Assembly: GCA_000934665.2 (NCBI GenBank)
Contig: KZ538376.1
Coordinates: forward strand, 1-64,000
Length of the DNA stretch: 64,000 nt
Reading direction: 5' to 3'
Origin: Catajapyx aquilonaris
Taxonomy: Eukaryota
Shown here: one piece after another, positions 2,386-29,653 of the stretch
How positions within the stretch are numbered: the stretch's first letter is position 1
Layout: every line of letters begins with the position of its first letter
Notes under the pieces: model-generated
Database searches by the model: none
Told to the model about the DNA's origin: nothing
What the model saw: the letters and a program-made list of their open reading frames with translations, nothing else
Position numbers and translations under genes: made by a program

Positions 2386-2886
2386 CCCTCGGACGGTGAC
2401 GTGGGCACTTTTTGTGGCCAACGACCCTTTTTTTGCTATAACTTGGAAAGTTTAGGACATTCGAGATTCATCTTTGAGAACATTTTCGTTTGACTCTTTC
2501 TGTCATGAATGATGTTTAGTTTAAATTTTTTGAGCAAATAGCACGATTTGGAAAAAATTAATTAGGCGGCAATGCGTAGTTGGGGCCTGACCAAGATCCG
2601 GTCGGGCGGCTCCCGGTGGCATCCCAGGCCGCCAAGGGGTGGAATCTCCCTACTCCCGGGAGTTGGGCCCGACTGATTTTCTTTCAGATTTTTTTTCTGA
2701 TCGTACTATTTGATCAAAATATGTAAACTAAATGCTATTTGTCGTAGAAGGAATCACACTATAATTGTCTCAAAGGTGAAGCCCAAATGTGCTATATTTC
2801 GCCAGATATAACAAAAAATATGGCCTGGTCACAAAAAGTGCCCATGTCACCGGAGAGCGAACATTTCGCACGTCACCGTCAGAGGG
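2386..2886. mobile_element. piggyBac-type non-autonomous element nested in the RTE
   Basis: TTAA on both sides (2382-2385, 2887-2890); 18-bp TIR CCCTC(G/T)GACGGTGACGTG with 1 mismatch. Confidence 0.9.
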
Positions 2887-3860
2887 TTAAGACACTGACC
2901 CACCTGGTCCAACCATGTCTTCCTAGGCCTATACTTGCCCCTCTTACCAACGACTCCACCCAAATAAACCTTCTTCACAATCTCCTCCTTCATCCTCTCC
3001 ACATGGCCAAACCACCTTAGAGTAGACCTGCACACCCTACCTTTAACAGACTCCTTAACATTACACCTCTGCAAAATCTCATTCCTAATCCTATACAACT
3101 TAGTAACTCCACAAACAGCCCGGAGATAACGCATCTCTGTAGCCAACACCCTACTCTTATGCCTATCCGACCAAACCCACGCTTCACTACCATACATAAG
3201 TGAAGGAACAATAACGTGAGAATAGACAGACAACCTACAGGCAGAAGACAAGCCCTTATTTCTAGAAAACCTACTTGTGGCACCTATCACTTTCAACCCA
3301 GAACTAACTCTCCTATCAATCTCCCCATCCATTCTACCATTACTCTCAAGGACACTACCCAGGTATACAAACTGGTTGACCTGCTCAACCAGTTTTCCTC
3401 GTACCTGCAACATGCAAGGAGAAACCTGCTGTCCTCTCTCAAATACCAATACCTTAGTCTTATCTACATTAATCCTCATACCCCTCTTTTCACAAGCATT
3501 ATCTAACTTGCATAGGATCAACTGTAAATCAGCCTCACTCTCCGCCAGAAGGACAGAATCACCTGCATACAGCAAGTGACTAACTAACTCATCACCAAAC
3601 TGCACTCCTACACCTTCAACCATAGCTTCCCTTACACATGCATCTAAGTACAAGTTAAATAACCAGGGAGACATGACACAACCCTGCTTAACCCCAACAC
3701 TAATGTTAAACCAGTCAGAGAAACCCCCACTAGTTCTAACACAAGCTCTACTCTCTTCATACAATGACTTTACAGCCTCTAGCAGGCGGCCCTTCACTCC
3801 ATAGAGACTCAGAACTTCCCACAAACCTTCCCTACTTACTGTGTCATATGCTTTCTCTAA

Positions 3861-4041
3861 AGGCCCATTCACACAGGCCGTCGACGGTTTTCGTTTAGGT
3901 TTAGGTTTAGGTTTTGGACCAATCAGAGCGGGCCCTCACGGCAACCATGACGCATTGTTTACGTGAGGGCCCGTTCTGATTGGTCCGCGGCGTCGACGAG
4001 ACCAAAAACCAAAACCGTCGACGGCCTGTGTGAATGGGCCT
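3861..4041. mobile_element. PIF/Harbinger-type MITE nested in the RTE RT domain
   Basis: Perfect TIR AGGCCCATTCACACAGGCCGTCGACGGTTTT; TWA flanks; splits the FVD|LEKAYD motif. Confidence 0.88.
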
Positions 4042-4358
4042 TTAGTCTACAAAGGCAACAAAAACCTTCTTGTTTACAGCTAAATACTTTTCTATCACGA
4101 GTCTCATACAGAATATCTGATCTACACAACTCTTACCCAACATAAACCCACTCTGAATATTCAGTATTCTCTGACTTGTGACCCTCTTAACTCTTTCTAT
4201 CAGAACCTTAGCATACACCTTTCCTGGTACACTTAACAAACTAATGGCACGATAATTCTTGCAGTCACACACATCTCCCTTACCCTTATACTGAGGTACT
4301 ATAATAGCATACCTCCAATCCCTAGGAACTGCACCATTCTCAAAAGAAACGCTACATA

Positions 4359-4368
4359 AATAATAATG

Positions 4369-4421
<53 letters not shown>

Positions 4422-4750
4422 CCTGGGTAAGGGCTTTCACCCCCGGTGTGGGTATATCACACGGAACCTTTATTGAACCATTATGTACATGGAGCCAATT
4501 ATTTGAAGAGCCCGGGCCCACGGGCAGGATGACAGGAGGGGATGTGCAAAGTGCAAATGCGCTGTCTTGTATGGGTACATTTTGTGAACTCCCGCAGGTG
4601 GTTTGTCTAATGGAAGTACCACCCAAGACGAAGCCAGAGACGACGGCGTAACTCTTCACGAGAGGAAGGGGGTGTCCCCGGGCTGGGATTGAACCTGGGA
4701 CCTTAACATCCGTGGGCGCGTACATTACCGCAGCGCCACTTTGCCTCCCT
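4359..4750 (-). mobile_element. tRNA-derived SINE, family A
   Basis: A box TGGCGCTGCGG, B box GGTTCAATCCC, (TAT)n tail; homologous to 19575 and 27741 copies. Confidence 0.88.
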
Positions 4751-5160
4751 TGCTAATCGGGGAATGAAGAATAAAGAAAACGAGTTTGCCTGAAGGAGTC
4801 CAAAGGAAACTGTACTTACCATGGTGTGTTTCACCTCTCATGATTCCCAATAGGTTGGCCAACTAGAATTCAAATGGAGTACCGTATTACGGTATTGTAG
4901 TGTTCCTCATGAGGAACACCCCGATGAGTAATAGGCACCGGACAGCTTTGATATAAATATATTCTCCAGCTCAGGTAAAACACGTCTGTTCTATCAGACA
5001 ATCAGTTCACAACTCCTCCCAAACAACTCCCAACACTATATGTACACTGCTCCCATAGCAACGGTTTTCAATGCACAACTCGACCTGACAACAATACACT
5101 AAAGTTCTGTTGCCAGGACCCGAACCACTACAGTATCTAAACTGCATATTTAAAACTGGA

Positions 5161-5656: not shown

Positions 5657-6442
5657 TTCATACCCCATTATCAGCCTATCGGCCCTTTAGGGGGGAAGTT
5701 TTGTTTTGCCTGGAACTCTTTGCTTTCATTTTACTGCACTTTTTTGGGATAGGATAGGGACGGAAGGAAGCGGCTGTGGCCTATTAATTACGGAAGCAAC
5801 TCCGGAATTTTTCTGGAAGGTCCGTGAGAAACCACAGAATACCACGGTCAGAGTCGGGATTTGAGCCCAGGACCTCCCGATTAGCAGTCGGACACCATAT
5901 CCCCTACTCCAAACTGCTTCGGTACTCCCCCCTATTATAAACGTCCATGGAACTCTGCAGTGTTTGTATTAGATGATCAAAACACTCATTTCATTCTGCC
6001 TGACATTTTCTTTTGACGTTCTCGACCTATCCCCGGGTTTAGTGTCCATGTAGTTGGCACCACTGATAAACAACATCCCGACCTAGCCTATGTCCGGTTT
6101 ATTGTTTACGATGTTCCAATAATTCGACCATTCCTCCTTCCCCCCCTCCTCTCCCCCTCCCCTGTTGTGAGGTCACTGTGAAGATGTGGGTGGAGGATGG
6201 TGGAAGGGGGGAGGGGTCTTCACGGGAGATGAGATGTGTCCTCGTTGACGTCCAGCAAGCGACTGTGATGTTCTTCCACCCATTGCACATGCTCGGAAAA
6301 GGGGCCAATCCGAAGCATCATGGTAACAATATGTCCAGGTAACAATGGACGGGGCCCAATCGGAACGTGGTGGTAACAACAATATGGGGGCGAACCAATC
6401 TGAGGGCTTATACACACTCCGCAAGCATTTTAATATTATAGA
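5161..6442 (-). mobile_element. non-autonomous Helitron containing a nested SINE
   Basis: 5' TCTATAATATTAAAAT and 3' CTAG, inserted between A and T; colinear with 31877-32821. Confidence 0.85.
5595..5923 (-). mobile_element. tRNA-derived SINE, family B, nested in the Helitron
   Basis: TSD ACTCCCCCCTATTA (5581-5594, 5924-5937); (ATT)n tail; absent from the 31.9-kb Helitron copy. Confidence 0.88.
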
Positions 6443-7221
6443 TTGTAACTGTTCATACTATTCAAACAGTGCATCACAGTATTTCTGTCACATAATAGTT
6501 TAATTAATATCCTGGATCATTTCTGAGTGTCTGTGTTTGGCAGTGAAATCAGCAGCTGGATATGAAATGCAAGTTGGGAGGAGTAACATTCAGACACTTG
6601 CTTCAAGTAGCCTACTAATTTCAGTTTTTGTCAAGGGCTGCCACAATAAACGCTCCGTCGCTGACGTGGGGGCATTTTGACCCCAGCACCACATTTTAAA
6701 TTATAACTAAAGAAGTTTTGGTCATTTTCGTTTGTCCTTTACGAACTTCTTCAATTGGTTACTGACACAAATATTAGCATTCAGTTTGAAATTTTAGAGC
6801 AATTACTGCGATCACAAAAAATTAACTATGAAATGATGCGTAGAGTAAGGGCAGCAGGGGAGAGGTGGCCGGGAGTGATGAATATGTGTTTCTGCAGGGG
6901 GCACATTTCGGAGGATTAAGATACGGTGATTCAAGTAAATCCTCTTTTTTCACCAAATGCAATATCTGTACTTATTGTGCCATTGTATCATATCGCAAAA
7001 GATGTTAAATCTTGCTTGAAGGTGCTAAAAAGTCAAAATACATTATTTTGGGGGAGAAGAAGTTGGAAAAATTCATTGTTGAAAATTGTTGTACGCTCTT
7101 ACTTAGGGGCTGCTGCCCCTGAAATATATGTGAATTTGCTTTGATATAAATGTTGAAACTGGTGTGGTGGGGATGACCAATGCCACTAAACCAAAAGAAG
7201 GGAATTTAATTGGTGACTATA

Positions 7222-8472: not shown

Positions 8473-25354
<16,882 letters not shown>

Positions 25355-25672
25355 TTACACAACAGTCCTCCAAGACTTCATCTGGTGGTAGAGTTGCCAA
25401 AATCTGAGAAAGTTATGCAGAAGTTCAAAGTTCCAGTTATGAAGCTCAGTGATGCAATATAAGTACCTATTTCTGAGTTGTGTGCCAGTATTGGTTTGTT
25501 AGAAGTGTGATCTTTAATTTTTAATTTTTATGTATTTGGAGAATCTTTATTACCTATATAGTGTTTGTTGCAATGTTGCCCTTTGTTTTGTAATCCATAT
25601 AATCATATTTTTGTAATTTTAATTGTTTAATTTTCATACTGCAAGAATTGACAGAACTTCTTGAGTTTATAG

Positions 25673-25853
25673 AATAAATTGCTTTTTGCAAAGTGAAACT
25701 ATACTTTTTGTCAGGATAAGAAGATGGACTTGGGTAAATGGTTGACAAGCAGAAGAAAATTCATTTTCGGTGCTTGTAGTAATCTTGCTTTTTCATGAGA
25801 AAAAGTTGTATGCAATGCAAGCAAAAAATATATATTGTGGCAATACAAATAAA
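25673..25853 (+). terminator. candidate BRCA2 polyadenylation signals
   Basis: AATAAA at 25673-25678 and 25848-25853 in AT-rich sequence after the last exon. Confidence 0.45.
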
Positions 25854-26456
25854 GTTCCTGGATGGAAAGTGATACTACACAATGGTGCTACCATGTTCAT
25901 TCAAGACTGAAATGCCATAGGCTTTTGGACTTTATTACTTAGCTGTGTCTACATTTTTGCCAATAATGGTATGACCTTCTTGGCAAGTGAATACCACTCG
26001 TACAGTAGCTACATACAGTATGTATATGCGTAGCAGAAATCAGCCTGAAGTCTTCTGTCATAAATATTTTCCAGCGCATAGGGGAGCATCAAATTGCTGT
26101 TTGTGAGTCTACTAGTTGGACATGCTTATTGTTGAGGTAATTTGTTTTTGTGAAGGTGTGTTCCCAAGCTCGCAAAATTGGTTGTAACCAAAGTGTGAAT
26201 GTAGTGTAGCCTACCTTGTTTGTTTGTTGGTTCAACCCACGGACTACTCCGCGAACGTATGGAGTTCAAGAATTGGCTTTCCATTCTTGCTCATGCTTTC
26301 ACTAAGGCTGTCTCACAAGCTTGGGAACCCATGGGAAGGCTGATTGCACTGCGACATTATGTTGAATTTATTGAGTTTGATGCCATCTAATTGTTCACCT
26401 CGAGGCCATGAGAAGTGGCAATAACTGGTGCTGGACGGAACATTCTGTATGCTACA

Positions 26457-26684
26457 CAGTGATGTAGCCAGGATTCCAGTTTGGGGGGAGGGCACAAACC
26501 GAAAAGGGCGGGGCGGGGGGAGGAGGCGGAAGTTTTTTGGTTCAAGGTCACACGAGCTTAGGTAAATGTGGGAGATTTGAATGCGTGTGTATTTGATGAA
26601 AGTAGCACCTTTTCCCCCCAAAAATTAGTAATTTGAAAACATGATTTTTAAAAAAACCCACAAGAGTTCGGGGCTACGTCACTG
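26457..26684. mobile_element. hAT-type MITE
   Basis: TIR CAGTGA(T/C)GTAGCC; 8-bp TSD ATGCTACA / ATGCTACG. Confidence 0.8.
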
Positions 26685-26692
26685 ATGCTACG

Positions 26693-26965
26693 TATAATGG
26701 ATACTCCATGATAGGTCCTCTTGGGCATTTTAGGGGATCATCTTTTAATTACCCTACTTTAATCATTGCCTATGTTGTGATGGGTTTTGATTGTGGGAGG
26801 AAACGGGAGATCTCCGAGATCACCCACGCGAACACGGAGAGAACCCATCGAAACTCTATCCACATAAGTATCCACTGTCCGACTCGGGGATCGAACTCAA
26901 GACCATATAGGTCTATGCTCAAGACCTTAGAGGTGGAAGACTGTGGCGATAACCACTACAGCCTT
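26693..26965 (-). mobile_element. tRNA-derived SINE, family C (degenerate)
   Basis: Homologous to 62244-62500. Confidence 0.8.
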
Positions 26966-27740
26966 CTGTATATGCTATTCATAGAGACTGCCCTACACTG
27001 GAGTTGTGCTGTTTCATCTTGGTTGCAGCGGAGGACAAACTATGATTTCACTCGGGCCGGGCAGTTCCTGACAAACATTCTCACTAATTTGTTTATGGGT
27101 GATTCTCCAAAAACTTGCAATTTTCAAAGCAAAAATGAATGAATTTCAAAACTTGTTTTTAAAAATCTGGAAAAATTCACACTTACTCTATATGAGGTCA
27201 CAAACAAGGGAAAAATAGGGGGACCTAACTCATATTCTAAAGTGGTTGAAACCTTCCAGGATTAATTTTGCAGTTAACTGCAATAATTCTTATTGGACGT
27301 AGTTCCTCATAATATTAGATCAACAAGTGAAACTCAGTTTTTAAATATCTGTCCCCCAAGTATAGTGAAACCCTGAGCTCAAAAGTCGATAATTTGGAAT
27401 ATTTTTTTCCACTTGAAATGACCACAGCAGGCACTCAAAAGATGCCGGAATTTTAATATTAATTTTTCAGACACTAGTTTATGATGGCCAGTTTTATGAG
27501 TCGCATCTTGTTCAAGAACGATAATTTTGTTAAAATATTAATAACTTATTATTCAATAACTTATTATTGCCGGGAGTTTGGTAGGCTCCAGAAGAATGAC
27601 CTTCGGGTGCATTAGGATTAATATCACGGTCCAGAACAATAAAAGAATAGAAATTTCTGTCAGGTGATGACATCCCTTCATGCCATGGAATCACAGTTAT
27701 TTCAAAACATTTGAGTTATTATGTGTCATAGAAAAGTGAG

Positions 27741-28066
27741 AGGGAGGTGGAGTGACGCTGCGGTAACGGATGTAAGGGTCCCGGGTTCGATCCCAGCACG
27801 GGCATTCTCCCCTTCATCTCGTGCGGAGTTAAGCGGTCGTCTCTGGCTTCGTCTCGGGTGGAATCTCCGATAGACTAATCCACCCGGGAGAGTTCAAAAA
27901 ATGTACCGTTACAGACATTGCACTTGCACCTTGCACATCCCCTCCTAGCCACCCTCGCATCCGGGCGTTTCGCAAAAAGGTACCAATATGTACACATTGT
28001 ACTCGAGGTTATAAAGAAAATAAAGGTCCGTGCAATACTCCTGAGGAGGTGGTCCGCACAACCCAA

Positions 28067-28140
<74 letters not shown>
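27741..28140 (+). mobile_element. tRNA-derived SINE, family A
   Basis: 12-bp TSD TAGAAAAGTGAG; B box GGTTCGATCCC; (TTA)n tail. Confidence 0.9.
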
Positions 28141-28142
<2 letters not shown>

Positions 28143-29653
28143 GAAAAGTGAGCCAGGCGTGTGAGCGCAAAATGTGCTGTATAACTGAATTTAAAACTCC
28201 TTAATTTTTAACCCACTGACAGCAATCTTAGTTAAATCAAGGTGTCATGGAGAAGCTGTTATTTTTTATTTTTTTATTTTTTTATTTTAAATTTAGGTAC
28301 CCCTTACTCAAGCCCTCGGCTTGTTTGTGGGGATACACACTATGGAGTAGCAGTGTTGCCAAGTAACGGAGTAAAAAATCCATTTGTTTCACTCCAAATT
28401 GTTTAAAAAATATCCTGATCTGCAGGGGAGTAACATGAAAACTCGGGACACCCTTTGGAGTGATGCAGCAAGGTCATGTCAAATGATTAAATAGTTTTTC
28501 AAACGTTGTTTATACATTCAAGTATGTAAAATTTAATTATACGTGGTGTCCACAATGAACCTCCCTCCCTAGTTTCAAAGAGCGGTAAAAAATTGAAATG
28601 CAGAGGTAGGCTATCTAAGGTTTTTGTGGTTTAAGGGGGCGCTACAGTCAAAAAGCAAAGGTTTTGTAAAAAAAAATAGCCAAAAAAATCCATTAGGGAC
28701 AAGAAGTTGGGACTTCATTTTCATGAATGTACATAAGTCAAAGACCTATTAGCGCATATAATCGAATCACGTTCGTGTGTCGAAGGGCCTCCAGGGCCGC
28801 GTGACGCCACGCCACTGTCGACACGATTTAGGACGCTGGGGTCAACCTACGACCACTGTGATGTAGTGTAAGAACTTTGGTGACAGATGACTTTCTGGAT
28901 TGGAAAGTAACATAAAATCGTAAACCCATTGACAAGTTTGTGTTTTCAATGACTCACTTTTGTATAACTTATCAAAATAAGTTTTTTTTTACACTGAAGC
29001 AACTGATTTATGAATGCAAAAATGAGCCTCAGTAGGTCTAATTATCTGGCACATAGTAAGTTATTGTGAAGATACCTCAACATTTTAGTTTTGGCTGTTG
29101 TCTCTTCTCCTGCCCCAAATGTATTGCACGGAACATTTGGACAACCCCTTCTGATTCCTGGATTACGTCAGAGGTGCCAATAAACATGCAGGATGAGCTA
29201 AAACAAGTCAACGTGGAGAAAATTAGGGGTATACCATGTTAGAAAGCTGTTAGTCATGTTTTACTTTTTAGGAAGTGAAAAACATTCGATATCTATGAAC
29301 CTTTTCTAAATGCAACTAATATTGAATTTTCTGACATGCCTACCTCAGAGTAATGTTTCTCTCGCGAGAGAAACATTACTCTGAGGTAGGCTACTAGTTG
29401 TAATTTAAGAAACAATTTTGGACAGGTGCATTTATTTATTTGGACGTGGAATTGAAAATTAAATGCGTCAATCGGTTTTTGGCGTATCTTATTAGGAATG
29501 TTCTTTTATGTGAGTACCTTAGAAAATATTGTTTGTTTCTGGATTGAAACTGGATCAGAACGGAATCCGCATTTTCCGATTTCTTGATTTTTTCAGTCAT
29601 TCAGGCACTGTTTTAGCACAGTTTTCATCATGCCTGTTCAGGCTAGTAACAGT

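Follow-up and report, generated by a model that had tools for sequence, protein, structure and literature searches.

The window analysed here, a stretch of 64,000 nucleotides, carries a BRCA2 gene on its + strand, which Pfam identifies from helical, OB1, OB2 and OB3 domains distributed over three + strand ORFs. A large exon region at 16764..18704 (+), bounds that are stop-to-stop ORF limits and not true splice sites, contains putative BRC-like repeats at about 16840-17650, then the helical domain (PF09169, 2e-41) and OB1 (PF09103, 8.4e-33). When BRCA2 proteins of five relatives were aligned to the window by tblastn, the BRC-repeat regions of thrips and Ptychodera matched 15856-17654 (E 4e-7 to 8e-3); Pfam returned no BRC-repeat family at E ≤ 0.01 over 16764-17705. 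Upstream of the BRC-like region lies a 504-codon ORF (12652-14166, +) that is rich in S, P and K; it matched no Pfam family at E ≤ 0.01, and a possible identity is a long BRCA2 exon, N-terminal or central, with little conservation. Between 18704 and 22582, about 100 residues of the five relatives, comprising the tower and the start of OB2, had no tblastn match.

Five sequencing runs cover the stretch. Four are DNA runs from one sample, possibly or probably the assembly's own source, and the fifth, X5, comes from another sample and study. X5 is not recorded as RNA, and we infer from its spliced contig that it is an RNA-type run. One X5 contig (record 25) has 417 nt upstream of an exon starting near 22579-22582, so at least one exon is unplaced in 18705-22581. 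The penultimate coding exon (22582..23195, +) encodes OB2 (PF21318, 2.9e-10) and the N-terminal half of OB3 (PF09104, 7.5e-13, profile positions 10-59), both found in the ORF at 22572-23222, and ends ...EGIK with AAG in phase 0. It is flanked by an AG at 22580-22581 and the donor GTAAGA at 23196, and X5 contigs 25-27 show 0 other letters over 22579-23193. The last intron (23196..25027, +; GT..AG) is rich in high-copy repeats and is defined by a single 570-nt X5 contig that joins 23193 to 25026 over 1832 nt without mismatch (GT..AG with the cut at +2), its shorter side having 255 letters; the DNA runs do not show this joint. The coding part of the last exon (25028..25351, +) holds the C-terminal half of OB3 (PF09104, 1e-13, profile positions 65-133, exon residues 6-73), a short linker and the basic start of a TR2-like module, and the spliced X5 contig has 0 other letters over 25026-25317. 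The BRCA2 gene is thus expressed and these two exons are spliced together.

The X5 splice joint and the sequence together set the frame of the last exon, and from 25028 this + strand frame reads ...PSNNRKRINVLK and then TGA at 25352-25354 (in a longer reading, ...GKHPPSNNRKRINVLK directly before the TGA). The in-frame TGA stands in the context CTA AAA TGA TTA CAC and is followed by LHNSPPRLHLVVELPKSEKVMQKFKVPVMKLSDAI, 35 sense codons at 25355-25459 closed by a TAA at 25460-25462 (+), an end that lies 8 codons past an FKVP motif and is comparable to the relatives' protein ends. The earlier note had reported the TGA at 25352, the 35 open codons and the TAA at 25460, and we recovered the same coordinates and letters. 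Coverage by X5 stops at 25317, 35 nt before the TGA, and is uninformative on the codon. The first AATAAA on the + strand after the TAA (25673..25678) is a candidate poly(A) signal; the hexamer is frequent in the window, with 110 matches.

The DNA runs X1, X2 and X4 were each assembled on their own, and their contigs covering 24599-25900 show 1 other letter, at the window's N (24612); none is listed over 24623-25900. Their word depths (29.5, 21.2 and 15.7) equal those of neighbouring single-copy pieces. Because the contigs of three runs agree at depths of 15.7-29.5, a base-call or consensus error is very unlikely, and we regard the TGA at 25352-25354 as a genuine genomic stop codon. The earlier note had listed such an error among its options, which the identical letters in all three runs speak against. 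Since the three runs share one sample and minor variants are lost in contigs, the site may still be heterozygous.

Two routes that would dispose of the stop were rejected. Excision of the TGA within an intron would delete conserved residues, since the alignment of the module continues through the stop, with the TGA filling one column; the RNA-type contig is collinear to 25317. The only GT between 25317 and the stop lies in AAT|GTTCTA, which we take to be a poor splice donor by the donor consensus. A changed genetic code was dismissed on finding 0 TGA codons inside the 646-, 216- and 108-codon BRCA2 ORFs.

From the base composition of the following 1 kb, the probability of 35 codons without a stop is 0.085, so the open frame alone means little. 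We built profiles solely from the BRCA2 tails of other animals and searched with them all six reading frames of the window, in which stops had been replaced by X. One profile comprised six C-termini (louse, two sawflies, ant, bee and hemichordate). The other comprised 67 sequences obtained from 74 segments, keeping those that scored at least 2.4 bits against the first profile, dropping two evident false matches, adding five tick tails by a short motif and removing identical sequences. Searched against whole frames, the 6-sequence profile had its sole positive match at 25364-25438 in the BRCA2 frame (4.4 bits, equalled in 2 of 100 block-shuffled windows), and the 67-sequence profile its sole match at 25394-25447 (1.3 bits, a score matched in 7 of 200 shuffled windows). 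These scores are low because each target is a 21,000-residue frame, and we therefore turned to length-matched tiles of 50 residues. The tile containing the finding scored 15.2 bits with the 6-sequence profile and 13.3 bits with the 67-sequence profile; of the 12,774 real tiles from the six frames, the 4 top-scoring ones all overlap + strand positions 25292-25531, and the next real tile reached 9.3 and 6.1 bits, respectively. Among 51,096 shuffled tiles, 0 reached the score of the finding (top shuffled tiles 9.1 and 12.8 bits). Scored alone, the 35 post-stop residues gave 16.2 and 13.5 bits and the pre-stop part 2.5-2.6 bits. The tblastn match of Ptychodera (hemichordate) BRCA2 passes through the stop, covering 25049-25486. 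Pfam had no family for the 35 residues after the stop, and no phmmer alignment of the last exon plus extension ran past query residue 96. By a profile likeness beyond chance, the 35 predicted residues are homologous to the BRCA2 tail. The earlier note had named a failure of these residues to align with arthropod C-termini as the outcome to look for against its reading; in our searches the tail matched by profile.

The C-termini of the phmmer BRCA2 matches have a common block, ..R[LI]..L..YG.PP.LSP, followed after about 12 residues by F..P. In an alignment of 67 tails the window reads NNRKRINVLK-X-LHNSPPRLHLVVELP-KSEKVMQKFKVPVMK, and the TR2/CTRB module predicted from this alignment straddles the stop, with a basic RKR..L part before it and PPxL and an FxxP core (FKVP) after it. 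The pre-stop part (NNRKRINVLK, 25322..25351, +) fits the consensus ..R[LI]..L.. and includes the basic patch, and the 35 codons at 25355..25459 (+) are homologous to the RAD51-binding half of TR2/CTRB, with the PP of SPPRL at 25367-25372 and FKVP at 25424-25435. Twelve columns (R, L, L, Y, P, P, L, S, P, S, F and P) are conserved in 60% or more of the 67 tails; the window is identical in 8 of them, with I for L in addition, and after the stop it keeps 6 of 9 (P, P, L, S, F and P). FKVP aligns with the F..P columns, which belong to this set. The conserved Y is H in the window, or L with a one-residue shift, and vertebrates have L or I there. At the S-P of the L-S-P column, the CDK site (human S3291), the window reads H-L and lacks S/T-P, as do the ticks and shrimp of the alignment; an S-P at 25364-25369 precedes that column by a few residues. 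In the order and spacing of its motifs and in its place after OB3, the segment agrees with the relatives. The candidate module thus lies C-terminal to OB3, matches the profile and contains an FxxP core, in a frame interrupted by the TGA at 25352-25354. The central claim of the earlier note, a TGA directly before an intact-looking TR2-type segment, is borne out by frame, profiles and alignment.

The stop column is the most variable of the block. Among the 67 sequences it holds R in 19, Q in 9, Y in 8, C in 8, H in 4, S in 4, W in 3, N in 3, A in 3, K in 3 and M, G and V in 1 each, or 13 different residues in total. All 67 relatives compared have a sense codon there, which makes the stop the derived state. 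Since the TGA occupies exactly one column of the alignment, a single substitution is enough to explain it; the residues at this column that lie one step from TGA are R (CGA/AGA), W, C, S (TCA) and G (GGA). The earlier proposal that an Arg (CGA) fits at the stop is in keeping with the 19 sequences that have R, and in so variable a column CGA is one of several candidate precursors.

In human BRCA2, 3296-KAFQPPR-3302 sits in the acidic-patch groove of RAD51, F3298A abolishes filament binding, S3291 contacts RAD51 E91, and a KKRR patch further N-terminal is a separate DNA-binding activity, as described in the available part of PMC10622577. The core of the P-motif is F-x-x-P, in which the F and the fourth-position P are critical, according to the accessible text of PMC11229353. 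Like human TR2/CTRB (exon 27, with a KxFxPP P-motif), the module in the window is C-terminal to OB3 and has a basic patch, a PPxL stretch and an FxxP core with flanking lysines (RKR...SPPRL...QKFKVPVMK). Unlike it, the module has a TGA that parts the basic part from the RAD51-binding part, whose RAD51 binding is putative by homology. The core FKVP also differs from the human FxPP (louse likewise has FKVP and locust FHVP), as does the H-L at the human S3291 S/T-P column, where the nearest S-P is displaced upstream. By homology, a product ending at the TGA would lack everything that touches RAD51 in human.

We next consider how well the tail is preserved relative to other animals. A phmmer search of 1.84 billion representatives with the last exon plus extension gave 7 matches at E ≤ 1e-3 (best 41.8 bits, identity 31-38%), with all alignments inside query residues 2-96; one match (P0007, a repeat protein) was judged unrelated and dropped. 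A word-indexed search for longer proteins gave 0 matches. The helical/OB1 exon retrieved 135 BRCA2 proteins at E ≤ 1e-10, with 0 above 49% identity and a mixed top of insects, ticks, fishes and a priapulid, and in a quick tree the window sat on a long branch (0.89) inside no well-supported group. On these searches, the protein collections covered contain no close relative. For preservation, we scored length-matched segments with the 6-sequence profile, placing X at the stop, and compared the window with 32 segments that were neither in the training set nor from Hymenoptera. The window's tail scored 15.2 bits. Lower scores were obtained for 11 of the 32 orthologue tails (alligator, turtle, frog, an unnamed vertebrate-type protein, one fish, two shrimp and four ticks) and higher scores for the other 21, ranging from paddlefish (15.3) to locust (52.2). 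The 35 codons contain 0 frameshifts and 0 second stops. By profile score, the predicted tail is as good as those of working orthologues, which means that it is still under selection or that constraint was relaxed only recently. By our estimate, the 105 nt available cannot limit "recently" more narrowly than to about one tenth of a substitution per neutral site.

The sequence around the stop, CUA AAA UGA UUA CAC, has two features that fit a leaky stop, UGA itself and a purine (A) at -1. UGA is the leakiest stop, a -1 purine is favourable, and UGA-CUAG and CARYYA are stimulatory 3' motifs, as described in the available part of PMC4132726. The UUACAC that follows the stop in the window matches neither CUAG, UGA-C nor CARYYA, the motifs named in that part of the source. 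Folding of the 131 nt from 25340 gave -18.2 kcal/mol, whereas shuffles gave -22.1 +/- 3.4 (z = +1.14), and 177 of 200 shuffles reached an equal or better energy. The earlier note had pointed to a weak downstream pairing (25376..25444, +); the paired strings exist, at 25376-25385 and 25433-25444, but the minimum free energy fold does not contain the pairing, and it is not supported as a structure. A search of Rfam over 24900-27500 at E ≤ 10 gave 4 weak, unrelated matches with no SECIS among them, and the fold of the region predicted no duplex around the UGA. The A of the UGA has a G as its 5' neighbour and a U as its 3' neighbour. For ADAR enzymes, an A flanked by 5' G and 3' U is the least favoured.

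Several explanations of a TGA before a preserved tail have to be weighed. The reading we favour, with somewhat better than even confidence, is a recent nonsense allele or a lineage-specific truncation of the BRCA2 C-terminus. Reference individuals carry some stop-gains, and these are enriched near 3' ends; human BRCA2 has a natural stop of this kind in its last exon, the polymorphic K3326*. The reading that competes with it most directly is functional read-through of the UGA, programmed or selected, by a near-cognate tRNA (Trp, Arg or Cys), yielding isoforms with and without TR2, which we consider rather unlikely. We took the prior odds of a nonsense change and of functional read-through as comparable, and the tail does not separate the two because both predict it to be intact. 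Thus an extension homologous to the RAD51-binding half of TR2, and no less well kept than in functional orthologues, is also what read-through predicts. The stop column, which takes 13 different residues including R, W and C, tolerates almost any residue, and therefore a read-through product would probably work. The UGA with A at -1 suits read-through in the light of the leaky-stop features that PMC4132726 describes in its available part, the stop falls between basic and RAD51-binding parts whose activities are spatially distinct in the portion of PMC10622577 at hand, and read-through is widespread in an insect, with stop/sense interchange discussed, in the accessible text of PMC3840789. Against this stand the UGA-UUACAC context with its missing stimulatory 3' motifs, a downstream region that folds no better than its shuffles, and the sense codon in 67 of 67 relatives, by which the stop is derived. 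Since no known stimulatory context or structure is present and every relative compared has that sense codon, the odds tip to a nonsense change. In our judgement, a read-through stop arising inside an ancestral conserved motif would also be a small subset of read-through cases. Of the options in the earlier note, programmed read-through accordingly gains nothing from the context and structure tests and is carried here as a rival, and a nonsense allele or lineage-specific loss is preferred at the strength given above.

The remaining explanations are much less probable. A sequencing or assembly artefact, or a heterozygous site at which the nonsense branch was kept, would leave a sense codon on at least one chromosome and a normal BRCA2; the DNA support does come from one sample that is probably the assembly source, and contigs lose minor variants, but three separately assembled runs agree at depths of 15.7-29.5 with no alternative letter over 24623-25900, and we hold this to be very improbable. 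More improbable still is another form of recoding, either A-to-I editing of UGA to UGG (Trp) or insertion of selenocysteine. W does occupy the stop column in 3 of the 67 relatives, and editing that removes stop codons has been described in a fungus, in the available part of PMC13123824, but no SECIS was found down to E = 10 within 2 kb downstream. Moreover, no double-stranded structure surrounds the codon, and the ADAR preference disfavours G-A-U. Least tenable is a chance open frame in an A+T-rich 3' UTR with a coincidental likeness to TR2, the module having never been present or having long been lost. The open-frame probability of 0.085, the end of phmmer alignments at query residue 96, the missing Pfam match for the 35 residues and the low whole-frame scores (4.4 bits with 2 of 100 shuffles equal, 1.3 bits with 7 of 200) are compatible with such a frame. 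However, the single best match over all six frames in the whole-frame searches lies exactly within 25364-25447 in the BRCA2 frame, 0 of 51,096 shuffled length-matched tiles are as good, and motif order, spacing and position match the relatives, so that this reading is close to refuted.

Under the favoured reading of a recent nonsense change, a single-base substitution at a variable linker position inside an ancestral TR2/CTRB module would have produced the TGA in an expressed, otherwise intact BRCA2 orthologue. The stop would be evolutionarily young, as a private allele, a strain allele or a change that occurred recently in the lineage. The main product would end ...NNRKRINVLK, retaining the putative BRC-like repeats, the helical domain, OB1-OB3 and the basic patch, and would lack the PPxL...FxxP segment that forms the RAD51-filament grip in human BRCA2. 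By analogy with human and mouse, such a protein would be a separation-of-function BRCA2, in which RAD51 loading is kept and filament stabilisation and fork protection are weakened, and full-length protein would presumably arise only through unprogrammed leak at the UGA. Mouse Brca2 exon-27 deletion alleles are viable, with defects in repair and fork protection. They lose the TR2-bearing C-terminus and would fall in the same class of phenotype, although they are engineered and come from a vertebrate.

If the UGA were instead read through to a purpose, we would tentatively expect two BRCA2 forms from one mRNA, termination leaving the DNA-binding basic patch without the clamp and read-through, with W, R or C inserted at a residue-tolerant position, restoring the ancestral PPxL...FxxP clamp. 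Translation might then, no less tentatively, set the ratio of a "loader-only" form to a "loader plus filament and fork stabiliser" form. In vertebrates, the corresponding control lies in CDK phosphorylation of the S-P site, which is lost at the aligned column here.

Natural stops and read-through in other systems offer points of comparison. Human K3326* (rs11571833) places a stop 93 amino acids early and is a neutral polymorphism with a debated modest risk, as described in the available parts of PMC4601142 and PMC5796231. Like the stop in the window, it is a natural nonsense codon in the final BRCA2 exon that costs only C-terminal residues, and it has healthy carriers; the two differ in that the stop in the window precedes and removes the core, whereas K3326* falls beyond KAFQPPR (3296-3302) and leaves this core intact. 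The read-through genes OPRL1, OPRK1, AQP4 and MAPK10 and many Drosophila genes, as presented in the accessible portions of PMC4132726 and PMC3840789, resemble the window in having UGA, a protein-like extension and a -1 purine. The stop in the window differs from those of programmed read-through genes in having neither CUAG nor CARYYA and no 3' structure, and its extension is the ancestral C-terminus, unbroken in 67 of 67 relatives, rather than a lineage-specific add-on. In PEO1 cells resistant to PARP inhibitors, low-level read-through of BRCA2 Y1655X gives meaningful full-length protein, as reported in the available part of PMC12526053. Unlike the candidate in the window, that event, on the same partial account, was acquired in cancer cells, is UAG-selective, lies mid-gene and works via changes in termination and NMD. 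In the limited literature that we searched, BRCA2 read-through appears only as an acquired trait of drug-resistant cancer cells, with no germline or programmed case.

Within BRCA2, TR2 sets fork protection and filament stabilisation apart from RAD51 loading. To our knowledge, it has so far been studied with engineered mutants. If the TGA is a plain nonsense allele, it would provide a natural separation-of-function allele, with the stop upstream of the FxxP core, and would indicate that the truncation is tolerated outside mammals. If it is read through, it would be the first translational recoding that we know of to control a RAD51-binding element of BRCA2.

The window also contains several repeats, some of them within or near the gene. 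Three segments, 22400-22516, 23219-23803 and 24038-24622, have word depths in the thousands in the DNA runs, compared with about 15-30 for exons, and are high-copy repeats beside and inside the last BRCA2 intron. In DNA contigs, 23264 and 23763 are connected by an "opposite strands" joint, possibly the trace of a foldback element. Long triplet microsatellites lie at 19814-20065, in a BRCA2 intron, and at 27833-28207, downstream of the gene, and read as poly-Asn, poly-Ile, poly-Tyr and poly-Leu in several frames. Two minus-strand ORFs at 2847-3935 and 4042-4752 match reverse transcriptase (PF00078, 3.6e-18 and 5.7e-06, the second below the Pfam cut-off) and probably belong to one non-LTR-type retroelement; the second is broken by a run of tyrosine codons, a triplet microsatellite. 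Finally, ORFs at 6070-6457 and 23968-24523 encode near-identical peptides (LPCCEVTVK.WVE.GGR.EGSSRE.RCVLVDVQQ.TV.FFHPL.MLG.GAN), and one repeat family is therefore present twice in the window, with one copy inside the last BRCA2 intron.
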